Shown piece after piece: positions 1-8,899 of a DNA stretch of 8,899 nt. Origin of the DNA: a virus. Taxonomy: Duplodnaviria > Heunggongvirae > Uroviricota > Caudoviricetes. Within the stretch, counting starts at the first letter, position 1. Every line of letters starts with the position of its first letter. The notes under the pieces were generated by a model. It saw nothing but the letters and a program-made list of their open reading frames with translations. It had not been told where the DNA came from and made no database searches. The translations under genes and the position numbers were made by a program. The stretch is taken from IMG/VR virus record IMGVR_UViG_2600255005_000007, positions 1 to 8,899 of that record, one strand, 5' to 3'.

Positions 1-477
1 GTGATAAAGCGTGTTTTGCAGGCTGCGTTCGATGTCATCAACGCTGCGCCGCTGGCTGGCAGAGAGCGAGGCAATAAACGCTTCGGCTTTTTCCGGCGAC
101 TGCTGGCGATAAAGATTCGCCAGCCCGCGCACGGCGTTAGTGTTGCTACTGTCCATACGCAGCGTCTGCTGGTAATAGCGTTCAGCGGCGGGGTAATCTT
201 TGCGCGCCATCGCCACATCGCCCAGCCCCAGCACCGCATAGCTGTCGGCGTTATCGACATTGCGCGCCTGCTGGAACAGGCGTTCTGCCCGGTCGGGATT
301 ATTGGCTTTCAGCGCAGCATCGCCCTGCTGGATCGCCAGCCAGTAGCGATTCACCTTCAGCAGACTGTTCCATTTGTCGTTGTTGCTGCTGTGCGGATCC
401 AGCGCGAGGGCTTTTTCCAGATTCGCCACCGCATTAGCACGATCGCCATTCTGAGAATACGCCTGCCCCAGCGCCCC
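1..477 (-). pseudogene. bcsC: Internal fragment of cellulose synthase operon protein C (BcsC, TPR region). The N-terminal side is cut at 477/478; the gene continues past the window start.
   Basis: Reverse-complement translation of 477..1 reads GALGQAYSQNGDRANAVANLEKALALDPHSSNNDKWNSLLKVNRYWLAIQQGDAALKANNPDRAERLFQQARNVDNADSYAVLGLGDVAMARKDYPAAERYYQQTLRMDSSNTNAVRGLANLYRQQSPEKAEAFIASLSASQRRSVDDIERSLQN. I recognise this as the central TPR part of enterobacterial BcsC, nearly identical to my recollection of the E. coli protein. It is missing from the ORF track because it has no start or stop inside the window. Similarity ends abruptly at 477/478. Confidence 0.85.
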
Positions 478-2088
478 CGGAACGCGGCGAAAACATCAGA
501 GACGAATGCAGGTAACAGCGCGAAAGCGGCAGCTTCTTCAAAAACAGCCGCACAAAATGCAGCAACAGCGGCAGAACATTCAGAGACAAATGCCCGTGCG
601 TCAGAGGAAGCCTCCGCAGACAGTGAAGAGGCTTCCCGCCGTAATGCAGAGTCAGCCGCTGAAAATGCCGGAATCGCCACCACAAAAGCGCGGGAGGCCG
701 CAGCAGACGCAACAAAGGCCGGGCAGAAAAAGGATGAGGCTCTGTCGGCAGCGACACGAGCAGAAAAGGCGGCAGACCGCGCAGAAGCCGCAGCGGAAGT
801 GACTGCAGAGCCCTATGCGAATATAGTGCCGCCGCTGCCTGATGTATGGATACCGTTTAACGATACACTGGATATGATTACGGGGTTTTCGCCATCATAT
901 AAAAAGATTGTTATTGGTGACGATGAAATAACAATGCCAGGCGACAAGATTGTTAAGTTTAAACGTGCTTCAACAGCAACGTATATTAATAAGTCCGGCC
1001 AACTCAAGCTTGCTGAAGTTGATGAACCGCGATTTGAGCGCGATGGCTTATTGATTGAAGGACAGAGGACAAATTATCTGAGGAACTCAAATAAACCAGA
1101 CTCATGGACTGTTCATTCCGCACTGAATAAAACATTTGGCACTGATAAACAGGGGTTCAATTATGCCACGGTGACACCCACGGAAAGTATAGTGGGAACA
1201 ACAGGTGGCTATACTGTGCATGGTGTGGTTGCAGCAGACAGATTCCCGCTGGCAAGTGGTGAATGTTTCACTTTTTCGTGCCGGGTTAAAGGCGCTAAAG
1301 CACGATGCAGGTTAAGAGTTTCAGTTATTATTGGTGGAACAGATACATTCTCTGCTGACTCTTATCTTGATCTGGATACCCGGATCGCAACAGTAAGCGG
1401 TAATACATCCCTTATAACAGCCAAAGCTGAACAACAGGGCGAGTGGACCTACTATGAGGCCACTTATACAGCTAATACGGACATTGATACCGTTAACTGT
1501 GCTTTTTATATGACAAATAAAATAAGTAATGAGCCATTCTATGATGACTCAACATTAACCATGACGACGCCGCAAATTGAACTGGGCAATACGGCATCGT
1601 CATTTATTGTAACTACAATGCCAACAACACGCGCAAGTGATGTGGTTACTATCCCATCGCAGAATAACCTGTCAACACGGCCTTTTACGGTATTGTGCGA
1701 AGTAAGCAGGAACTGGAGTACACCGCCCAATGTTGCGCCAAGGATATTTGATGTTGGAGGGCACAGTATTGATGATAATTATTTATCGCTGGGGTTTGTT
1801 TCAACAGGAAAGATAAGCGCCAACGTAGGAATGGTTCAGCCACAAATTTCCTCAGATGGAGAAAGGTTCATTGTGGGTGTGAGAGCTAAATCTGATTTAT
1901 CAGTAAATGCAATATGCAGTGGTAATTATACAACAAACCTTAATGGTAAAATATTTGGAGTTACAGCAACATCGTACCGGTTTGGTGGGCAGACCGCAGC
2001 AGGAACGCGTCATTTGTTTGGACACATCAGAAATTTCAGAGTCTGGTTTAAAGAATTAAATGACAGGCAAATCAAGGAGGCAGTATGA
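478..2088 (+). CDS. Phage side tail fibre protein, 5'-truncated: Ala/Ser/Thr/Glu-rich shaft repeats followed by a distal receptor-binding region
   Basis: From 478 the frame reads RNAAKTSETNAGNSAKAAASSKTAAQNAATAAEHSETNARASEEA..., the low-complexity shaft repeat typical of lambdoid Stf-like fibres. A globular distal part follows, about 420 aa, ending ...TRHLFGHIRNFRVWFKELNDRQIKEAV. That tail resembles the usual end of LamG/ConA-like jelly-roll domains. The TGA stop at 2086-2088 overlaps the next ATG. There is no start codon of its own; the upstream open frame (1-477) is bcsC antisense. Confidence 0.8.
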   Translation, partial: RNAAKTSETNAGNSAKAAASSKTAAQNAATAAEHSETNARASEEASADSEEASRRNAESAAENAGIATTKAREAAADATKAGQKKDEALSAATRAEKAADRAEAAAEVTAEPYANIVPPLPDVWIPFNDTLDMITGFSPSYKKIVIGDDEITMPGDKIVKFKRASTATYINKSGQLKLAEVDEPRFERDGLLIEGQRTNYLRNSNKPDSWTVHSALNKTFGTDKQGFNYATVTPTESIVGTTGGYTVHGVVAADRFPLASGECFTFSCRVKGAKARCRLRVSVIIGGTDTFSADSYLDLDTRIATVSGNTSLITAKAEQQGEWTYYEATYTANTDIDTVNCAFYMTNKISNEPFYDDSTLTMTTPQIELGNTASSFIVTTMPTTRASDVVTIPSQNNLSTRPFTVLCEVSRNWSTPPNVAPRIFDVGGHSIDDNYLSLGFVSTGKISANVGMVQPQISSDGERFIVGVRAKSDLSVNAICSGNYTTNLNGKIFGVTATSYRFGGQTAAGTRHLFGHIRNFRVWFKELNDRQIKEAV

Positions 2089-2363
2089 AAGATTTAACTT
2101 TGAAATTTCCTGGTAACAGAGAGTTTAAATCCTTCCTGTCATCTCTTGACTGGGAGGAAGATGAAGACCTCCAGAATAAACTGTTAGTCGATGAAATTGG
2201 TTTCACCTACACAGAAACAGGGGTAACTGAAGAGGGAGAACCTGTCTGTATCCGGAATAACGGTTATTTTGTCAACATTCGCATTCTTGATGACTTGTTT
2301 GATGTTTCTGTATTCTCTGATTATGTCGTGGAGCTGGAAACACCGCTTCGGGAATGGAGCTGA
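2085..2363 (+). CDS. Small acidic protein (92 aa), translationally coupled to the tail fibre gene. Possibly a fibre chaperone or accessory protein; function unknown.
   Basis: ATGA start/stop overlap with the tail fibre gene. Strong SD (caAGGAGGcagtATG). Acidic composition (DWEEDEDL, TEEGEP). It does not match the classic Tfa sequence I know, so the function is inferred from position only. Confidence 0.6.
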   Translation: MKDLTLKFPGNREFKSFLSSLDWEEDEDLQNKLLVDEIGFTYTETGVTEEGEPVCIRNNGYFVNIRILDDLFDVSVFSDYVVELETPLREWS

Positions 2364-2375
2364 AAGGAGGAAATA

Positions 2376-2669
2376 ATGGATATAAGCCCCTTACTTCATG
2401 CACTTTGTGCTGTGGCTGCGCAGATACTGGTTGGTCTTTTTACCGGAAACTGGGCTTACGGAGCGATAGCCGGTTGTACGTTCTTCATTGCGCGTGAACA
2501 TACCCAGGCAGAATATCGCTGGATTGAAATGTTCGGGCATGGCAAGCGAATGAATATGCCGTGGTGGGGCGGATTTGATCCGCGCGCGTGGGATGTGGCA
2601 AGCCTGATGGATTTTGCTGTGCCGGTGGTGGCGTGTCTGCTGGTCTGGCTGTTGGTTAATCGTGGGTGA
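2376..2669 (+). CDS. Small integral membrane protein (97 aa, about 3 hydrophobic segments), prophage accessory or moron-like
   Basis: Strong SD (gaAAGGAGGaaataATG). Hydrophobic stretches are ISPLLHALCAVAAQILVGLFTG, AYGAIAGCTFFIA and LMDFAVPVVACLLVWLLV. It sits 12 nt after the previous stop. The 3' end lies next to the junction with the recombinase fragment, so the native C-terminus is uncertain. Confidence 0.6.
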   Translation: MDISPLLHALCAVAAQILVGLFTGNWAYGAIAGCTFFIAREHTQAEYRWIEMFGHGKRMNMPWWGGFDPRAWDVASLMDFAVPVVACLLVWLLVNRG

Positions 2670-2679
2670 AAAAAGGTGG

Positions 2680-3033
2680 GCTGTATATGCAACGGAGGAA
2701 GAAACCCGGGAGAAAGCGCGGATACAGAAACCGGGTGCCTGTCACATCTTCCGGCACTCGATGGCAACGCAGATGCTGGACAACGGCGCAGACACGCGGC
2801 ACATCCAGGCGATCCTCGGCCATGAGAAGCTGGAGACGACGCAGATCTACACGCGGGTAGCCATCGGTCACTTACAGGAAGTTCACGCGCTGACGCACCC
2901 GGAAGAGCAGGACGAGACGTGGACGGATCGGCACGTTGCGGATGCGGTGGCAGAGCCGCAGACGCGCCGGGAGCGTAATCACGCAGAGATGGAGCGGGCG
3001 CTGGTCAGCAGGAAACGCCGCCGGAGACGCTGA
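2680..3033 (+). pseudogene. C-terminal catalytic fragment of a tyrosine recombinase/integrase; the N-terminal two thirds are missing
   Basis: The translation contains ...KARIQKPGACHIFRHSMATQMLDNGADTRHIQAILGHEKLETTQIYTRVAIGHL. This gives the H-x-x-R box, the LGH box and the catalytic Tyr (IYTRV) of the XerC/D-phage integrase superfamily. The first catalytic Arg and the core-binding domain are absent. The upstream part of ORF 2614-3033 only overlaps the membrane-protein gene in another frame. The left boundary is approximate, about 2670-2700. Confidence 0.8.
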
Positions 3034-3110
3034 TGCAGGCCGGAAGCGTGATCATCGCCGGACTGCCTGAAAAGTTAGCGGGCGATCCCTGTAAGGCCGT
3101 GGGGTGAGGT

Positions 3111-3154
3111 GCAGGGCAGACAACCGCCTTCCCTGGCGGTTGACTGCCCCCTGC
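3111..3154. repeat. Imperfect inverted repeat / hairpin 1
   Basis: Perfect 8-bp core caaccgcc (3121-3128) / ggcggttg (3135-3142) with a 6-nt loop, ttccct. The outer arms gcagggcaga / actgccccctgc extend the pairing with one A-A mismatch and a 2-nt bulge. Confidence 0.7.
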
Positions 3155-3174
3155 CAGCGGAGTGCGCGGGGGTA

Positions 3175-3240
3175 AATGCCGTTCGCCCCGTGGAGGCAGG
3201 CGTGTCCCATGCGGCCACGGCGCACGGGGCAAACGTCATT
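3175..3240. repeat. Imperfect inverted repeat / hairpin 2
   Basis: The 18-nt arms aatgccgttcgccccgtg (3175-3192) and cacggggcaaacgtcatt (3223-3240) pair at 16 of 18 positions around a 30-nt loop. Confidence 0.7.
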
Positions 3241-3242
3241 CA

Positions 3243-3339
3243 ACATAATGCGGGGGATTATGCGCACTCTCGCCGGGTGGCAACGGCGGCGAACCCGACC
3301 CGCTGTGCGCGGCTCGTGTTCGCACAATCCGCATTATGT
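3243..3339. repeat. Imperfect inverted repeat / hairpin 3
   Basis: Perfect 11-bp outer stem acataatgcgg (3243-3253) / ccgcattatgt (3329-3339). After a GGG bulge, an inner stem attatgcgcac (3257-3267) pairs with gtgttcgcaat-type sequence (3318-3328) at 9 of 11 positions. The apical region is about 50 nt. Confidence 0.7.
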
Positions 3340-3975
3340 CTTGCGCCCCCGCGTTCAGCCCCTTAACCAGTGCCACGCGCAGCAGCTCGCTGGCGCTCGC
3401 TCCTGCCGTCTCAGCGGCGGTGTCCTTCCTCAGCGCCGCAGTCGCCGCCATCCCTGGCGGCTCCGGTGCCGTTCTGCGGCGGCGTCATCGTGTGGCAGTC
3501 AGTCAGAAAAGGGTGTCGGCCTGGCGGCCTCCGCTTGTAAGGGCTTTATGCCCGCCCGGCGTCGTCTGGCTGCGGCGGCTCGTGCCGCGCAAAAAGGCCG
3601 CGCGTCACTCGTTCCCGCCTCGCCAGCTTCCGCTGCCCGCCCCGGTCCGGTGTGGTCATGCAAAGGCCAGCTCCGGTCAGGCAGCGGTGCCACAGAGCGC
3701 CGTTCCGTCGCTTGCGGACTCTCTGCCGCCCGCACCCGCAGACCCCGCGCCGTGGCCCCGCCATGCCGCCGGAGGCGGCCTGGCGGCCCCCCGTCACGGG
3801 TTGCCGGAAACGGACTTAGTGGAAAGCGGAATGACAGGTTCGTGGCGGTGGTGATATGGTGAGCGGGCGTGAAAACGCGCGTCGGGAAAGCCGGGTTAAC
3901 GTGCTGTTAAATAATTAAAAGGTGATAGCCGTGAAGCCAGAAACGGCGCGGGCGGTAGCGTGTTAAAAAGTATGA

Positions 3976-4401
3976 CCCGCACCGGATCGTCCCGATGACC
4001 CGATAGGGCTGAGAGGCGGATTAAACTTATACCAATACGCGCCTAATCCAGTAAACTGGATCGATCCTTTGGGTTTGAAATGTGGGCAACCTGAATGGAC
4101 AAATCATGGATACAAACATTTTCCTCCAAAAAACAAATCATGGAAGGATATAATTAAATCAACAAAATCAGGCCCGGCAAAATATTCTCCAGATATTGAT
4201 ATTAAAACGTTGGAATACGATGTTTTTAATACAGGCACACCTGTTACGAACGGTAAACCATGGAAAGTAAAAGATATGGGAAAAGTTATTGGGGCCAGTG
4301 AGGGTAAAGAATCTCAATGGGTTCGAGTTGAACTTAGCGGTGGGACAATACATGGACATCCTATATCAATCGATGAATTCCGAAGGCTAACAACATCATG
4401 A
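3976..4401 (+). CDS. Orphan Rhs C-terminal toxin tip 1: core-end remnant plus a toxin domain of unrecognised family, about 110 aa, with no start codon of its own
   Basis: The open frame reads [49 protein letters not shown]...[27 protein letters not shown]. DPIGLxGGxNxYxYxxNPxxxxDPxGL is the hallmark boundary between the Rhs/YD core and its variable toxin tip. The 'start' in the ORF track (4069) is only the TTG encoding a Leu of DPLGL. Upstream, tatgacccg (YDP) sits in another frame, so the remnant is frameshifted. Confidence 0.8.
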
Positions 4402-4691
4402 ACATTGATTTCTTAGGAAAAAAAGGGAATATAGTTTTTAATGACTTCTCCCTGAAACAAAGCATCCCTCTTAATGAACAGCGAGATGAACTTAAGGAAG
4501 ATATGCTCCAGGTTGAATATCCTGGTGGGTATCTTTTGGATGTTGGGTGGCGACCATCTTTTGATATAAATGGGAAGTTTTATATTTGTTTAATAAAGGA
4601 TTTTGATTGGGATTATCCCATTTATAATGGTTCTGCGAAAGATATTGTCTCATTATTATTTGAAATTAACCAAGCTATAAATAAACTTTAA
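4398..4691 (+). CDS. Putative cognate immunity protein 1 (97 aa)
   Basis: ATGA overlap with the toxin stop. AT-rich. The small cytoplasmic-looking protein sits immediately 3' of an Rhs-CT, the canonical immunity position. A terminator hairpin follows. Confidence 0.65.
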
Positions 4692-4700
4692 ATAAACTTT

Positions 4701-4740
4701 AAAAAAACTGGGAAGAAAATTAAATCTTCCCGGCTTTTTA
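4701..4740. terminator. Bidirectional rho-independent terminator between immunity 1 and SymE-like copy A
   Basis: Stem ctgggaag (4708-4715) / cttcccgg (4726-4733), 8 bp including one G-U pair, with a 10-nt loop. It is flanked by an A7 run on the left (4701-4707) and T5 on the right (4735-4739). Confidence 0.7.
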
Positions 4741-5006
4741 TTATTTAACTCTCGTTCAGCACACTAAACATCCCGTTCCGCATCCCCTTAACCGCCTGTT
4801 TGACCTGGTAAAGTTCCCTGCGCAGTTCCTGTACTTCGTTGTTATCCGCTAGCAGGATCAGGCAACCTTCCGAGATCTTCACGGTAACGCCCGTGCCGAT
4901 CTCAAATCCCGCTTCTCTCAGCCATTTGGCGCTGATTTTGATCACCGGCGTGTCGCTTCGGTTGGGCAGATAGCCCACGGTACAGTGGCGCTGTGTTTTG
5001 GAAATG
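4719..5006. repeat. Direct repeat copy A (288 bp): right half of the terminator plus the SymE-like ORF
   Basis: Aligns base for base with 7311-7599, with 7 substitutions and 1 T-run indel. Identity ends sharply after ...gtgttttggaaatg. Confidence 0.9.
4745..4978 (-). CDS. SymE-family (AbrB/SpoVT-fold, type I toxin-like) protein, copy A, probably 5'-truncated
   Basis: The translation ...TVGYLPNRSDTPVIKISAKWLREAGFEIGTGVTVKISEGCLILLA... matches the SymE signature as I recall it from E. coli SymE ([48 protein letters not shown]). The only available start is the GTG that encodes the Val of TVGY, and it has no SD. The frame stays open upstream to a TAA with no start codon. Confidence 0.7.
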   Translation of the reverse strand: MGYLPNRSDTPVIKISAKWLREAGFEIGTGVTVKISEGCLILLADNNEVQELRRELYQVKQAVKGMRNGMFSVLNES

Positions 5007-5159
5007 ATATTTTTGTATTTAACCTGCTGATTAGATAGTAAAATAAACTTCGTGCAGATAGCTTACTTTGTCAGGGTGTGGCGGTAGCGTATGAACTATG
5101 ACGTGATGGTTTTAGTGATTTATAGACGAAACTGACAGTACGATCCGGACTTCGATTAG

Positions 5160-5621
5160 ATTGCGCGATTTGACCCGATAGGGCTGGCGGGGGGGCTGAA
5201 TCTTTATCAGTATGCGCCGAATCCGTTAAACTGGATCGATCCGCTTGGATTAAGTTGCTCTAGTGATGCAAAAAAATTATCTGGTAATTTAGGATCAGCA
5301 CCAAGTAGTCACTATCGACCACATCATATGGTTATGTCTAATTCCAGCGATGTGCGTATGCGGTGGTTACGTAGAAGGATGGATCGGTTAGGTATAGATA
5401 TAAACGATTCCAAAAATGGTGTATGGCTACCCAAAAACTCTGATTATCGGTTACCGGGGACAAAAGCTACTGCTCATGGTGGTGAAGGTGTACATGGAAA
5501 TGCATATAAACAACATGTGTGGGATACGTTGAAAAATGCAAGAACAAAAGCTGATTTTGAAGCAGGGCTTGCGCAACTTAAAGTAGAGCTAAGTACTGGC
5601 AAAACGTTTCCTGTCCAATAA
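5160..5621 (+). CDS. Orphan Rhs C-terminal toxin tip 2: HNH/EndoVII-superfamily AHH-type nuclease domain, no start codon of its own
   Basis: The open frame after TAG (5157-5159) reads [40 protein letters not shown]...[10 protein letters not shown]...[16 protein letters not shown]...[15 protein letters not shown]. The xHH dyad, the downstream NG-x-x-LP and the H-x-x-H-x-x-Y fit the AHH nuclease toxin family, here with PHH. The M at 5328 in the ORF track is internal, in the middle of the HH motif. Confidence 0.8.
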
Positions 5622-5634
5622 GGAGTATGATCAC

Positions 5635-6252
5635 ATGAAAGATTTTCTGAAAAGTTTATATGAAGATTACAATGGAAAGTATTCGGAACTGATAGAACAG
5701 ATGAACGGAGAAAAGGCTACTTGTAGATGGGGGTATGGTGTTATGCCTGCCTTCTCTATAGAACCTTATGCATCCGAGCTTTTAGGTCATAAACCGGGAC
5801 GAATGTTGAAAAATAACTCAATCGCAGGAGTAAATAAACAATGCTATTATGTTGATGAACAAAACAGGATAATAGAAGGAATTACATACGCCAGCCATCG
5901 TAAGAAAGATAATGAATGGATTGTGTATAGAAATTTTTATATTTACCAAGAAAATACCATTCTTGGGCTTTTGTATAGTAGTACATTTGAAGATAGTAAA
6001 AACACAGGATTGAATAAGATTGTATTTATAAGCATTGATAATAAATTAATAAATAATAAGTATACTTTCATGTATGATGGGGAGTATTCTGAGGTAGATT
6101 ATATTTATAATAAAGATAAAATAATAAAAATAGACCAAAGGGTATGGTCTTCGTTTTATTTTGAACGCACTTATCTGATAGAGTCAAATGATCCATTGAT
6201 TATTAATGAATACTTAGAAAATAGTGGGAACATCAGGATCTACCCTACTTAA
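5635..6252 (+). CDS. Putative cognate immunity protein 2 (205 aa)
   Basis: Good SD (taAGGAGtatgatcacATG) 13 nt after the toxin stop. Very AT-rich. Immunity position. I recognise no domain. Confidence 0.65.
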   Translation: MKDFLKSLYEDYNGKYSELIEQMNGEKATCRWGYGVMPAFSIEPYASELLGHKPGRMLKNNSIAGVNKQCYYVDEQNRIIEGITYASHRKKDNEWIVYRNFYIYQENTILGLLYSSTFEDSKNTGLNKIVFISIDNKLINNKYTFMYDGEYSEVDYIYNKDKIIKIDQRVWSSFYFERTYLIESNDPLIINEYLENSGNIRIYPT

Positions 6253-6345
6253 TTTATCAAAGTAAGAGACTAATATATGGACTATGATGCGGCTGTTTCA
6301 GGGATATGCGATTGAAGCCAGTAGTATGATCCTGCGATGGGGTAG

Positions 6346-6801
6346 ATTCACCGTCCTGATCCGATAGGGCTGGCGGGGGGAATAAACCTCTATGCTTATG
6401 CGCCGAATCCAGTAAACCACATTGATCCTCTTGGGCTATCTTGTGGAAAGGTTGGTAACGTTGAATATCGTAATTTTGAGCGTTCTCCGGGAATGTTTTC
6501 TCGGTTATTAAAGAATAAACGTGACTTTGATTATGTTGCCAGATATAACATCTCAAGATATAAAGCTACATTGAGAAAAAATAATCCGGATGGTTTTGGT
6601 AATATTAGCCATTATTTCGATGGTGTAGATGCAAAAGGAAATAAAGTCGTTATTGAGGTGGCGAATACAGGGCATAAATCTTCAAGCGGTGGTTTTGAGC
6701 CTCCACATATTAAAATTCAAATAAAAGACGCTGATAACAAAGTGATACATAATGCCAAATATTTTTTGGAAGATGATATATATAGAATTACGGGCAAATA
6801 A
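6346..6801 (+). CDS. Orphan Rhs C-terminal toxin tip 3: toxin domain of unrecognised family, about 125 aa, with no start codon of its own
   Basis: The open frame after TAG (6343-6345) reads [76 protein letters not shown]...PPHIKIQIKDADNKVIHNAKYFLEDDIYRITGK. It has the same core/toxin boundary motif. The M at 6493 in the ORF track is internal. Confidence 0.8.
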   Translation: MHRPDPIGLAGGINLYAYAPNPVNHIDPLGLSCGKVGNVEYRNFERSPGMFSRLLKNKRDFDYVARYNISRYKATLRKNNPDGFGNISHYFDGVDAKGNKVVIEVANTGHKSSSGGFEPPHIKIQIKDADNKVIHNAKYFLEDDIYRITGK

Positions 6802-7260
6802 ATGAAAAATATTAGAGAGTTAAATAATGCAGAATTCTCCGGGCTTATTAACAATGCTTTACCATTCTTACATATTAATCCTATAAGCGAAGCTGTTTGT
6901 ATTCATGCAGAAGCTTATAAAAGTGGTATTGATGTTAACTATATCCGTTGCAACGTTGACTGGGAGGGGTTTTCTTCTTTAACTGAAGCGTTGGAAACGT
7001 TATACCATGAATTATTTAAAGATGGTATTCCATCAGGCGAATTGTTGTTTTTTTACCCGTTTGATAGAACAAAGAAAGGGAATTATGGTGTTATACTGGA
7101 ATCATCTCAGCTATTAGATTTCTTAATAAAAGAGCATTTGAAGATTTATCCTGAATGTTTTAATGTAGAAATGTGTAGCTTCGGTTTTTATTTTATAGAT
7201 CACGAAATATTTTACGGCATGGAACATCCTGATTTTTTATATAGTTTCTGTGTAAGATAA
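6802..7260 (+). CDS. Putative cognate immunity protein 3 (152 aa)
   Basis: The ATG directly abuts the toxin TAA (taaATG), implying translational coupling. AT-rich. Immunity position. A terminator hairpin follows. Confidence 0.65.
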   Translation: MKNIRELNNAEFSGLINNALPFLHINPISEAVCIHAEAYKSGIDVNYIRCNVDWEGFSSLTEALETLYHELFKDGIPSGELLFFYPFDRTKKGNYGVILESSQLLDFLIKEHLKIYPECFNVEMCSFGFYFIDHEIFYGMEHPDFLYSFCVR

Positions 7261-7297
7261 TTAATAAAGTGAGGAGTATATTTCTCTTTCTTAATCG

Positions 7298-7332
7298 CCG
7301 GGAAAGGTAGATTAAATCTTCCCGGCTTTTTT
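7298..7332 (+). terminator. Rho-independent terminator after immunity 3, homologous to the one at 4701-4740
   Basis: Stem ccgggaa (7298-7304) / ttcccgg (7319-7325), followed by gc and T6 (7327-7332). Confidence 0.7.
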
Positions 7333-7599
7333 ATTATTTAACGTTCGTTCAGCACACTAAACATCCCGTCCCGCATCCCCTTAACAGCCTGTTTAACCTG
7401 ATAAAGTTCCCTGCGCAGTTCCTGTACTTCGTTGTTATCCGCTAGCAGGATCAGGCAACCTTCCGAGATCTTCACGGTAACGCCCGTGCCGATCTCAAAT
7501 CCCGCTTCTCTCAGCCATTTGGCGCTGATTTTGATCACCGGCGTGTCGCTGCGGTTGGGCAGATAGCCCACGGTACAGTGGCGCTGTGTTTTGGAAATG
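7311..7599. repeat. Direct repeat copy B (289 bp)
   Basis: See copy A. The repeat ends at the same ...ggaaatg, after which the primase-like frame begins. Confidence 0.9.
7338..7571 (-). CDS. SymE-family protein, copy B, probably 5'-truncated. The ORF track extends it to 7619.
   Basis: Same sequence as copy A with 2 amino-acid differences (N/D, and terminal S/R). The 16 extra N-terminal codons in the track (7572-7619) begin with a GTG that lies outside the repeat, on the antisense of the primase fragment, and has no SD. I treat that extension as fortuitous. Confidence 0.7.
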   Translation of the reverse strand: MGYLPNRSDTPVIKISAKWLREAGFEIGTGVTVKISEGCLILLADNNEVQELRRELYQVKQAVKGMRDGMFSVLNER

Positions 7600-8824
7600 G
7601 TGGGCCGCACTGCTGGCACACGGCGTCAGGCAGGTACTGATCGCCTACGACAACGATCCGGCGGGCAATGAGGCGGCGGTGAAACTGGCTTCTTCCTTAG
7701 CCGCTTCCGGGATCGCCACGTTCCGCGTACTGTTCCCGGCGGGCATGGATGCGAACGGTTATCTGTGCAGTGTGGCAGAGCCGGAACAGGCGTTCAGTCT
7801 GTTGCTGGATGGCGCGGTGCCCATGAGTGACCTGGCCGATGCGGAGAGTATCGCGCCGCAGGCCAGCGCGGAGCCTGCACACCTGACTTCATTAGCTGCC
7901 GGGGTTGCGGTCTTACCCGCAGCCGCCGCGCCTGCACCGGGCGTCAGCGTGGAAACCCTGGCCGATGGCGAACTGATGGTAGCCTTACCCGGCGAACGCT
8001 GGACTATCAGGGGCGTAAGCCGCAAACCGAACGTCGCCGCGATGAAGGTCAATGCGCAGGTGCTGGACACCAACAGCGGCGTGGTGTTCGCTGATGCGGT
8101 GGATATGATGAGCGCCCGCAGCCGTTCCGGTTATGCGCGGGCCGCAGCGGCAGAGCTTGGGCTTGCCGAAGGCGACCTGCGCCGTTCGCTGGGTAAGGTG
8201 CTGCTGGCGCTGGAGCACTGGCAGGCGGCACCGGAGCCGGAGAGCGTCGCCCCGGAGATGACGCCGGAAGATCGGGAGGCGGCGCTGGATCTGCTGCGCG
8301 ACGAGTGTCTTGCCGGGCGCATCGCTTCTGATATGGCGGCGTGTGGCGTGGTGGGTGAGTCCACCAACCTGACGGCGGCGTATCTGGCGGCGGTGTCACG
8401 CAAACTGGAGCGCCCGCTTGCCGTTCTCATCCAGTCGTCGAGCGCGGCGGGTAAGTCCAGCTTAATGGATGCGGTGCTCAATCTGATCCCGCCAGAGGAA
8501 CGGCTGCAATACAGCGCCATGACCGGGCAGAGCCTGTTCTACCTCGGCGAAACCAACCTGCAACACAAGATCCTCGCCATCGCAGAAGAAGAAGGTGTGC
8601 GCCAGGCGGCGTATGCGCTGAAACTGTTGCAATCAGACGGGGAACTGACCATCGCCAGTACGGGCAAGGACGACGCCAGCGGCAACCTGGTCACCAAACA
8701 GTACACGGTGAAAGGCCCGGTGATGCTGATGCTGACCACCACGGCGATCGACGTCGATGAAGAACTGTTAAACCGCTGCCTGGTGCTGACGGTGAACGAG
8801 TCGCGGGAGCAGACGGAGGCCGAA
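7598..8824 (+). pseudogene. Internal fragment of a Toprim / P-loop NTPase primase-helicase-like protein of an integrative or conjugative element, truncated at both ends
   Basis: VLIAYDNDPAGNEAAVKLA...FRVLFPAGMDANGYL looks like the distal Toprim DxD region. Later, LIQSSSAAGKSSLMDAV is Walker A-like and HKILAIAEEEG is Walker B-like. The codon usage is GC-rich and coding-like, and all minus-strand ORFs here are shadows. There is no native start because the frame enters from the SymE repeat. At the 3' end the reading frame runs into the rrn leader and stops there fortuitously. Confidence 0.7.
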
Positions 8825-8899
8825 CTGCTCTTTAACAATTTATCAGACAATCTGTGTGGGCACTCGAAGATACGGATTCTTAACGTCCTCGGACGATAA
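8824..8899 (+). promoter_or_regulatory. rRNA operon leader including the boxA antitermination element; 16S rRNA expected just downstream of the window
   Basis: actgctctttaacaatttatcagacaatctgtgtgggcactcgaagatacggattcttaacgtc is identical to my recollection of the E. coli rrn leader downstream of P2. boxA tgctctttaacaa is at 8826-8838. The following small hairpin differs in a compensatory way (cgtcctcggacg versus cgtcgcaagacg), consistent with a natural rrn variant. Confidence 0.8.

Follow-up and report, generated by a model that had tools for sequence, protein, structure and literature searches.

A shared in-frame stop codon before two Escherichia ruysiae Rhs orphan modules as a probable inherited lesion of a non-coding junction family

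An 8,899-nucleotide (nt) stretch of DNA recorded as viral (positions 1 to 8,899 of IMG/VR record IMGVR_UViG_2600255005_000007; the whole stretch is hereafter called the window) contains 3 Rhs orphan modules, each with a predicted toxin tip and immunity gene, and in the short leaders that precede the second and the third of them an in-frame TAG occupies the same codon. Why should 2 sequences so diverged share one stop? An earlier sequence-only reading had offered 2 answers, namely, descent of the junction from a common ancestor or selection keeping the orphan tips translationally closed. The window is Escherichia ruysiae sequence, 100% identical to GCA_000208585.2. Its orphans begin at the DPIGL codons (GAYCCGATAGGGCTG, starting at 3997, 5172, and 6358) of an 81-nt hyperconserved segment present in 3 copies of 73% to 75% identity (repeat family D2), are translated as DPIGLxGGxNLYxYAPNPxxxIDPLGL followed by unrelated sequence, and possess neither an N-terminal core nor a translation start of their own, with only 4 to 7 open codons before DPIGL. 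Located downstream of an rhs gene of full length, and starting at the hyperconserved core end, these cassettes are Rhs orphan modules. We propose that the shared TAG is probably a lesion inherited by common descent within a family of non-coding junction sequences.

Leader 2 (5007 to 5171, + strand) consists of a symE-proximal part (5007 to 5064) and a 107-nt family leader (5065 to 5171), and precedes orphan 2; leader 3 (6253 to 6357, + strand) fills the entire interval between the immunity stop codon and the DPIGL of orphan 3. The gapless alignment of 5094 to 5183 with 6280 to 6369, put at roughly 60% identity in the sequence-only reading, holds (55/90 positions, 61%), as does the placement of the TAG 15 nt before DPIGL in both leaders (5157 to 5159 and 6343 to 6345, + strand), leader 3 reading ...*YDPAMG*IHRPDPIGL in the toxin frame. 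The assignment of this codon to the canonical Arg is also borne out: in full-length rhs of the same species it is CGG (GGG CGG TTT, encoding GRF), the sequence of that core being YDPDVGRFTQPDPIGL. The homology reaches slightly further left than previously aligned, spanning 5065 to 5171 versus 6251 to 6357 (local alignment z = 5.9, with 0 of 300 shuffles reaching the score), and these 107 nt correspond to the entire interval from the stop of the 205-amino acid (aa) immunity gene to DPIGL. They include a second shared in-frame stop that had gone unnoticed, 29 codons before DPIGL (TAG at 5085 to 5087 in leader 2 and TAA at the equivalent codon, 6271 to 6273, in leader 3, + strand), and one codon past it ATG-RAC-TAT-GAY is common to both leaders.

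In-frame stops are numerous here (3 to 5 in the final 40 codons of each of leaders 2 and 3), which brings up the plainest alternative, that 2 unrelated stop-rich non-coding stretches coincide by chance. According to our own hypergeometric estimate for a pair of unrelated stretches of 30 codons, one containing 3 stops and the other 4, a single stop position would coincide in approximately 36% of cases, about one third, and 2 positions in approximately 4%. A shared stop is thus easily coincidental and the coincidence alone is weak evidence; what counts is the homology, which at z = 5.9 refutes chance. With 2 stop positions in common and intermediate sequences linking the leaders, we regard the probability of this explanation as negligible.

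To the variants found in Escherichia coli we added a metagenome scan with the pattern TAYGAYCC-N13-ATT-N9-GAYCCNATHGG, in which the TAG codon was left free and the adjacent ATT was fixed, such that only leaders 2 and 3 and the E. coli variant L4 test the ATT independently. The scan yielded 6 further variants, bringing the family to approximately 10 distinct variants, which come from E. ruysiae, gut metagenomes, and a small number of E. coli genomes. Leader 2 is present in 3 of 5,426 complete E. coli genomes (94% to 96% identity) and on 2 metagenome contigs (L106 and L107), and leader 3 in 5 of the 5,426 genomes (90.5% identity) and on 2 other contigs (L099 and L109). Variant L4, from E. coli 06-00048, equals leader 2 in its 5′ half and is separately diverged, with the TAG retained, in its 3′ half; intermediates of this type connect leaders 2 and 3. 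Across the family, TAG was found in 8 of the approximately 10 variants, the others having CAG (L101) or ATG (L096) at this codon. The comparison of homologous leaders suggested in the sequence-only reading came out largely, not entirely, as conservation of the TAG: the codon is mostly kept and its flanks are nearly random, but 2 variants carry a sense codon, an outcome not far from the one that this reading had named as refuting its proposal. The leaders are 40% to 54% identical to the canonical core end and have the landmarks Y..YDP..G..DPIGL in common with it, which marks them as very old derivatives of the core end.

In a crude tree built without the TAG codon, the CAG and ATG variants are nested inside TAG-bearing groups, so that by parsimony TAG would be ancestral and lost twice. 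In L100, the TAG is the sole stop within 34 in-frame codons before DPIGL, suggesting that it is the founding, oldest lesion. Of the 2 original answers, descent of the junction from a common ancestor is thus the one favored by the data: a single family of approximately 10 variants, in most of which the TAG is present and in which it is parsimoniously ancestral. The same data bear on a different history, in which the ancestral codon was CAG and independent C→T changes produced TAG in several lineages. GQY-type core ends, with CAG, occur in Pectobacterium, Xenorhabdus, and Edaphovirga, many Rhs cores have Q at this position, L101 reads CAG ATT, and other leader codons vary in the same manner, codons −36, −39, and −45 switching between CAG and TAG and between CGA and TGA, as expected from C→T decay. 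However, parallel mutation would require at least 3 independent gains, versus 2 losses under an ancestral TAG (in the 57-column tree); codon −36 is mixed (4 TAG and 3 CAG), whereas this codon is TAG in 7 of 9 cases; and the nearest relative of L101 in the tree is the TAG-bearing leader 2. We consider parallel mutation unlikely.

Upstream of DPIGL, pairwise differences at codon positions 1, 2, and 3 were 0.44, 0.35, and 0.45, with no third-position excess; in the hyperconserved coding segment downstream they were 0.23, 0.20, and 0.47, with the usual excess at the third position. Given this lack of codon periodicity and the 2 to 5 in-frame stops carried by each leader of the family, the leaders evolve as non-coding DNA. 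A read-through or recoding site was rejected on the same grounds, the absence of upstream periodicity and the several additional stops.

The second original answer, that purifying selection maintains the stop against read-through or against translation of a free toxin domain from an upstream start, draws on the retention of TAG in 8 of approximately 10 variants between almost random flanking codons, on the new TAA that L096, the ATG variant, has gained 3 codons downstream (2 codons before DPIGL), matched in position by an extra stop in the leader of E. coli AR_0077, and on the 205-aa immunity gene being in frame with the orphan 3 toxin. Nevertheless, with 2 to 5 in-frame stops per leader, this particular TAG is redundant, and the stop density is that expected for non-coding DNA. 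Both sense variants also count against closure, L101 being open from 13 codons before DPIGL, as do orphans at homologous loci that have CGG at this position and in which the canonical frame is open for 23 to 476 codons up to and into the tip. In orphan 2, the first ATG, GTG, or TTG after the TAG is at 5328. Furthermore, orphan tips of Salmonella are expressed at a low level, their transcription being driven by an internal promoter and their translation beginning at a CTG (Starsta et al. 2020, PMC7043789), indicating that strict silence is not a general requirement. Redundant stops, sense variants, and open CGG orphans make selection for closed tips an improbable explanation, and we return to inheritance of the TAG from a family ancestor.

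If the TAG was inherited, the question becomes to which module the leader belongs. The sequence-only reading had labeled the 2 leaders core remnants of orphans 2 and 3; the derivation from a core end is upheld, but the attribution to the downstream orphan conflicts with their linkage to the upstream module. Positions 5171 to 6410 of the window recur in E. coli A37 at 92% identity (91.9%), as a block comprising the DPIGL of the AHH tip, the immunity gene, leader 3, and the 52 nt that follow the next DPIGL. Beyond this block the toxin of A37 is a different one, and its AHH tip is itself preceded by a different, canonical CGG stub. In E. coli, leader 3 accordingly has the same immunity gene upstream and a different toxin downstream. 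Leader 2 always follows the same 5′-truncated symE, both in metagenome contigs and in the 3 E. coli genomes, and the toxins after it in these sequences are of at least 4 kinds, among them the orphan 1 toxin in L106. The leader thus stays constant with the left module while the toxin on the right varies, which argues that leaders are not remnants of each orphan's former core. A stump of the resident core left by classical displacement is ruled out by the 40% to 54% identity to the core and by the upstream linkage. Genuine CGG stumps do exist before other orphans, with 23, 159, 231, 408, or 476 open canonical codons in E. coli and Shigella loci. We therefore regard the leader, as judged from sequence comparison, as the tail of the module on its left rather than the stump of the orphan that follows.

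A scenario accommodating these observations would begin with the last approximately 30 codons of an Rhs core (Y..YDP..G-x-I...DPIGL) that were inactivated long ago, with the TAG at codon −5 already present in the ancestor of the family. Copies would then have drifted as non-coding DNA, acquiring further stops mostly through CAG→TAG and CGA→TGA changes, and 2 lineages would have lost the TAG. A new tip module (DPIGL, toxin, immunity gene, with or without symE, and a trailing leader) would recombine into a resident rhs gene at its DPIGL...DPLGL segment, which would fuse the incoming tip to the core and leave the trailing leader before the displaced tip. In a Campbell-type version, a circle with the order leader, DPIGL, tip, immunity gene, and symE onward would cross over within the DPIGL segment of the resident rhs. 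Orphan 1 would represent an equivalent arrangement in which the carrier is still intact and the leader is the right end of an element.

Leader 1 (3885 to 3996, + strand), which abuts the DPIGL of orphan 1, is 7 nt shorter than a canonical core end and frameshifted (3971 to 3996), as the sequence-only reading had stated; far from being a lesion private to this orphan, it forms the right end of an element and is conserved as such in several genera. At the codons of interest, leader 1 has CGG ATC in place of the TAG ATT of leaders 2 and 3, and the known states (TAG ATT in the TAG family, CAG ATT in L101, CGG TTT in the canonical core, and CGG ATC in leader 1) are linked by transitions. Its terminal sequence, TTAAAAAGTAYGAC..GGATCG..CCCKATGAYCC, abuts DPIGL and is conserved across genera, being located 0.8 to 1.3 kb downstream of an integrase homologue in Citrobacter, Edaphovirga, Pectobacterium, and Xenorhabdus (approximately 0.8 to 1.0 kb in all but Citrobacter sedlakii, with many Xenorhabdus covered). 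Where the flank is long enough, the DPIGL of a full-length rhs lies approximately 5 kb upstream in those genera.

The element is a 6.27-kb unit composed of a terminator, symE, a helix-turn-helix (HTH) gene, a gene for a 983-aa primase-helicase, a gene for an XerC-like recombinase, a GC-rich spacer, and leader 1. It occurs twice in E. ruysiae at 92.7% identity (positions 2171 to 8433 and 11659 to 17873 of L004, a 4.65-Mb contig of a second genome of this species), parts of it being present in the window at 2706 to 3996 and 7338 to 8821, and is found in 66 of the 5,426 E. coli genomes, where it occupies 2 loci, one of the rhsC type (ybfA...ybgA) and one of the rhsE type (yncE...nhoA). Every intact Escherichia or Shigella copy ends in leader 1. 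The same gene order is kept in Citrobacter, Edaphovirga, Pectobacterium, Xenorhabdus, Lonsdalea, and Shigella. The full 366-aa recombinase, as encoded in L004, matches the XerC subfamily model NCBIfam NF002331 (527 bits versus a cutoff of 371), the HTH protein weakly resembles RstR and the Xer-activation family of VC1465, and a search of a phage collection returned only distant matches to the primase. In both copies, 78-nt GTCGG-rich repeats flank the stop codon of the primase-helicase gene (L004 5869 to 5946 and 6095 to 6172; 15326 to 15403 and 15552 to 15629).

The spacer of the element (3034 to 3884 in the window, 67% GC, non-coding and conserved as judged from composition, tblastx, and folding) measures 0.8 to 1.0 kb, with a GC content of 61% to 67%, in E. 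ruysiae, Citrobacter, Edaphovirga, Pectobacterium, and Xenorhabdus. Matches by tblastx were equal across all 6 frames, indicating conservation as nucleic acid, not protein; a 217- to 228-aa open reading frame (ORF) considered as a spacer-encoded protein was discarded, as it is not conserved at the protein level. The spacer folds better than shuffled sequences (z = −3.1 and −3.6 for the 2 strands), has compensatory changes in at least 2 helices (3115 to 3148, and 3243 to 3253 paired with 3329 to 3339), and has no match in Rfam; it could be a structured RNA or a replication or resolution region. Within it, at 3238 to 3268 on the − strand, lies a putative dif-like Xer core site, AGTGCGCATAA and TTATGTTGAAT separated by 9 nt. 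Both arms match the arms of E. coli dif at 10 of 11 positions. The arms are inverted and 11 bp each, as in XerC/XerD sites, and the site is kept in 11 of 12 spacers from different species. Its central region measures 9 nt in E. ruysiae, whereas Citrobacter, Edaphovirga, Pectobacterium, and X. bakwenae have 7 nt and the remaining Xenorhabdus spacers with a site have 10 nt, compared with the 6 to 8 bp of Xer sites. Such a site might serve in multimer resolution of an episome, in adding or removing whole units between tandem copies, or in some other role.

Several observations weigh against reading the TAG as a neutral inherited lesion and leaders 2 and 3 as relatives of leader 1. TAG and the adjacent ATT form a conserved island between 2 nearly randomised 9-nt blocks, and only 1 of 17 unforced codons is as conserved as the TAG, which pure neutral drift does not predict. 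The tree that makes TAG ancestral rests on only 57 ungapped columns. The similarity of leader 2 to leader 1 is modest (z = 3.8), the local alignment of leader 3 with leader 1 is not significant, and none of the intact elements that we found had a TAG-family leader at its end, so that we can only infer an origin of leaders 2 and 3 from decayed carriers. The island is in part a matter of ascertainment, as the ATT was fixed in the scan pattern; some constraint on the TAGATT block may nonetheless exist.

TAGATT might instead be a DNA or RNA signal, be it a site for the recombinase or an accessory protein or a −10-like element, in which the stop is incidental. All 6 bases are conserved as a block, extending beyond the stop codon, TAGATT matches TAnnnT, and the junction adjoins a recombinase-bearing element. 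In Salmonella, the internal promoter P2 was mapped to the corresponding approximately 90 nt of canonical cores, its transcription start site (TSS) being 89 nt upstream of the PxxxxDPxGL coding sequence, with a CTG start and with in-frame stops annotated in the orphan (Starsta et al. 2020, PMC7043789). The TAG leaders occupy the same approximately 90 to 110 nt just before the hyperconserved segment, but −35 and −10 are degraded in them (leader 2 has ATGACG-17-TATAGA, in which position 6 lacks its T). A consensus promoter scan found no sigma-70-like site on the + strand of leader 2 or 3, direct inspection revealed no usable −35 at 16 to 18 nt, and the leaders gave no secondary-structure signal on either strand (fold z of 0 to +1.3). 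Moreover, the ATT was tested independently only in leaders 2 and 3 and L4, leader 1, the sole leader found on intact elements, is without TAGATT, and the dif-like site is approximately 750 nt from the junction. A signal function of TAGATT hence appears doubtful, and common descent is still the account of the TAG that we favor.

A more speculative proposal concerns the element itself. The stop-bearing leaders may be junctions of a plasmid-like carrier, equipped with symE, an HTH repressor, the primase-helicase, the XerC-like recombinase, the dif-like site in its structured GC-rich spacer, and one silent tip with its immunity gene, which is able to form a circle and inserts at DPIGL; we advance this tentatively, as a possibility that we do not favor over its denial. 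Primase homologues are present on 2 small circular records. The 11,289-bp record from Lonsdalea populi (NZ_CP072857.1, L111) holds a leader-1-type sequence, a tip, an immunity gene, SymE, HTH, the primase, the recombinase, and a RelE/DinJ pair; it has no Rhs core, and the leader-1-type sequence stands directly before the tip cassette. The 8,758-bp record from Shigella flexneri (NZ_CP055112.1, L110) has 2 tips. These records may be episomal forms of the carrier or collapsed tandem repeats.

The left boundary of the element is approximately 45 nt past the symE start and the right one is at or inside the DPIGL segment, and the identity between the 2 DPIGL copies flanking an element is patchy to more than 150 nt. 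Flanking att repeats and an empty site were sought and set aside, the boundary pattern not being specific to site-specific insertion; it fits homologous, Campbell-type insertion at least as well. The palindrome CCCTAT-GACCCG-ATAGGG at the leader/DPIGL junction was likewise rejected as a recombinase core, occurring in Pectobacterium and Edaphovirga but not being retained in Xenorhabdus, and nothing resembling it is present on the full-length rhs side of the junction. In several Xenorhabdus, whole units with identical tip and immunity genes are repeated in tandem with a period of approximately 6.6 to 6.7 kb (5218 to 6076 versus 11832 to 12690 in L034; 11989 and 18727 in L033; 6677 and 13422 in L031), which suggests repeated insertion or amplification of the same element.

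Rhs orphan modules arising by C-terminal displacement have been described previously (Jackson et al. 2009, PMC2935791; Poole et al. 2011, PMC3150448; Koskiniemi et al. 2014, PMC3967940). As in the E. ruysiae locus, classical orphans form an array of tips and immunity genes after a full-length rhs, with the newest tip beside the core, start at DPIGL...PxxxxDPxGL without a start codon, and frequently have frameshifts or premature stops. A classical stub is the leftover of the resident core, and CGG stubs of this kind (23 to 476 codons) occur here too; the TAG leaders differ in being a short, propagated, upstream-linked family with identical architecture before unrelated toxins. Our literature searches found no description of TAG leaders; as far as could be found, the family and its linkage to the upstream module are undescribed, and they are ordinary in kind.

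For the carrier, precedents exist. XerC/D genes adjoin polyimmunity loci (Zhang et al. 2012, PMC3482391), integrase-like genes have been reported near Rhs genes of bee-gut bacteria (Steele et al. 2017), and Xer-dependent systems beside Rhs polyimmunity arrays of Xenorhabdus and Photorhabdus are attributed to Martinkus et al. 2026 (Curr Biol 36:176) by a bioRxiv preprint (10.64898/2026.07.13.738213). As far as this secondary account goes, those systems resemble ours in having an XerC-like recombinase and a dif-like site within tip and immunity arrays, including those of Xenorhabdus. The element described here differs from what is related there in that the recombinase is part of a fixed 6.3-kb unit with a primase-helicase, a structured spacer, and a closed leader at DPIGL, and in that this unit also occurs outside Xenorhabdus, in Escherichia, Shigella, Citrobacter, Pectobacterium, Edaphovirga, and Lonsdalea; the extent of overlap with Martinkus et al. 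2026 is uncertain, and going by that citation the carrier element is at least partly known.

Integron cassettes offer another comparison, being promoterless, in one orientation, next to a tyrosine recombinase, and bounded by a family of sequences. Unlike attC sites, the leaders have no inverted repeats or hairpin (z of 0 to +1.3), and the boundary here is a protein-coding hyperconserved segment. An attC-type boundary was dismissed, as the leaders gave no folding signal and the recombinase reached only 124 and 73 bits with integron-integrase models whose cutoffs are 265 and 435. Elements exploiting the host Xer system (the integrative mobile elements exploiting Xer [IMEX] CTXphi and TLCphi) and the cer and psi resolution sites are likewise comparable, with a dif-like core site and inverted partner sequences able to form a hairpin, and with the weak similarity of the element HTH protein to RstR and the VC1465 family. 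The element would depart from them by encoding its own XerC-like enzyme and a primase-helicase, by the central region of 7 to 10 nt in its putative site, and by occupying rhs loci instead of dif.

The shared TAG itself changes little, as it marks common descent in a junction that has become pseudogenised. Its use is that of a tracer: sequence before an orphan can belong to the incoming and not to the displaced module, so that stubs are to be read the other way round than is usual, which is of help in ordering the insertions in an array. The genomic context is of more interest than the stop and deserves follow-up: by way of the TAG we arrived at a carrier unit of fixed composition, which alternates with Rhs tips in at least 7 genera, at 2 E. 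coli rhs loci, and on 2 small circular records. Jackson et al. (2009, PMC2935791) stated that no stable episomal circle with an integrase was known in the case of Rhs. If the carrier moves tips, it would supply this missing circle and integrase and make tip exchange experimentally tractable; many orphan arrays of Enterobacterales would then have been built by successive insertions of a dedicated element, not solely by RecA-mediated displacement with naked DNA, and the TAGATT and leader blocks, conserved as they are, would have a function in the junction.

We read the uninterrupted context of the locus from the E. ruysiae contig L004 (also L013). The main rhs gene is absent from the window, of which positions 2706 to 7602 correspond to 7072 to 11968 of L004 at 99.98% identity. 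In L004, a full-length Rhs gene precedes the 3 orphans (DPIGL at 1311, with at least 436 open codons to the edge of the locus; 1416 open codons in L013) and is followed by a 143-aa immunity gene. Next come symE and HTH (both on the − strand), the 983-aa primase-helicase, the 366-aa XerC-like recombinase, and the GC-rich spacer, and then leader 1 with orphan 1 and its 97-aa immunity gene, the truncated symE (− strand), leader 2 with orphan 2 (an AHH nuclease) and its 205-aa immunity gene, and leader 3 with orphan 3 and its 152-aa immunity gene. A repeat of symE (− strand), HTH, primase, recombinase, and spacer follows, and the locus ends with a second copy of leader 1, a deaminase tip, an immunity gene, and symE.

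All 3 orphans are on the + strand. Orphan 1 (3997 to 4691) is made up of the DPIGL..IDPLGL segment (3997 to 4077), a tip reaching 4401, and the 97-aa immunity gene (4398 to 4691); E. coli FDAARGOS_1373 carries this tip and immunity gene as a fusion with a full-length rhs, and in E. coli PapRG-06-5 a core fragment of 408 codons stands before them. Orphan 2 (5172 to 6252) carries, after the hyperconserved segment, the AHH-nuclease tip, reaching 5621, and the 205-aa immunity gene (5635 to 6252), and is the only orphan whose predicted toxin has a domain match (Pfam AHH, 1.3e-10). Orphan 3 (6358 to 7260), with its hyperconserved segment, a tip reaching 6801, and the 152-aa immunity gene (6802 to 7260), has no match in Pfam or NCBIfam, nor do the predicted immunity ORFs match any family of these 2 databases. 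Some public annotations let the tip genes begin at the ATT right after the TAG, with 153 aa for orphan 2 and 151 aa for orphan 3 (6085 to 6546 and 7271 to 7726 in L008; 4178 to 4633 in L010), which is an annotation choice and not evidence for translation.

The 5′-truncated symE-family gene between orphan 1 and leader 2 (4745 to 5006, − strand) matches Pfam SymE_toxin (2.5e-11) and scores below the cutoff of the NCBIfam SymE model. Its homology to full-length symE ends at 5006 (9372 in L004), and it is included in a 272-nt repeat (D1; 4735 to 5006 and 7328 to 7599), the second symE copy (7338 to 7602, − strand) having its 5′ end cut by an assembly join. Antisense to both copies, Rfam Ssr1 and isrA produced matches below gathering scores (4575 to 5008 and 7057 to 7601, + strand), which would fit a SymR-like RNA transcribed towards leader 2.

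The remaining parts of the element in the window are the 3′ end of the XerC-like tyrosine recombinase gene (2706 to 3033, + strand; Pfam Phage_integrase), whose left end is cut by an assembly join or a rearrangement, and an internal part of the 983-aa primase-helicase gene (7602 to 8821, + strand; Pfam Toprim_2/Toprim_3), 100% identical to 13465 to 14684 of L004. The window departs from the L004 order at approximately 2706 and at 7602, and its context changes abruptly at approximately 480, approximately 2706, 7602, and approximately 8821. At approximately 480, an antisense bcsC/TPR fragment is continuous with a phage tail-fibre gene in a single 695-aa ORF; at approximately 2706, phage genes run straight into the 3′ end of the recombinase gene; and at 7602, symE is joined to the middle of the primase gene, with L004 11969 to 13464 missing. 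The source record is probably a stitched pseudochromosome or heavily rearranged. The final approximately 80 nt of the window look like an rrn operon leader.

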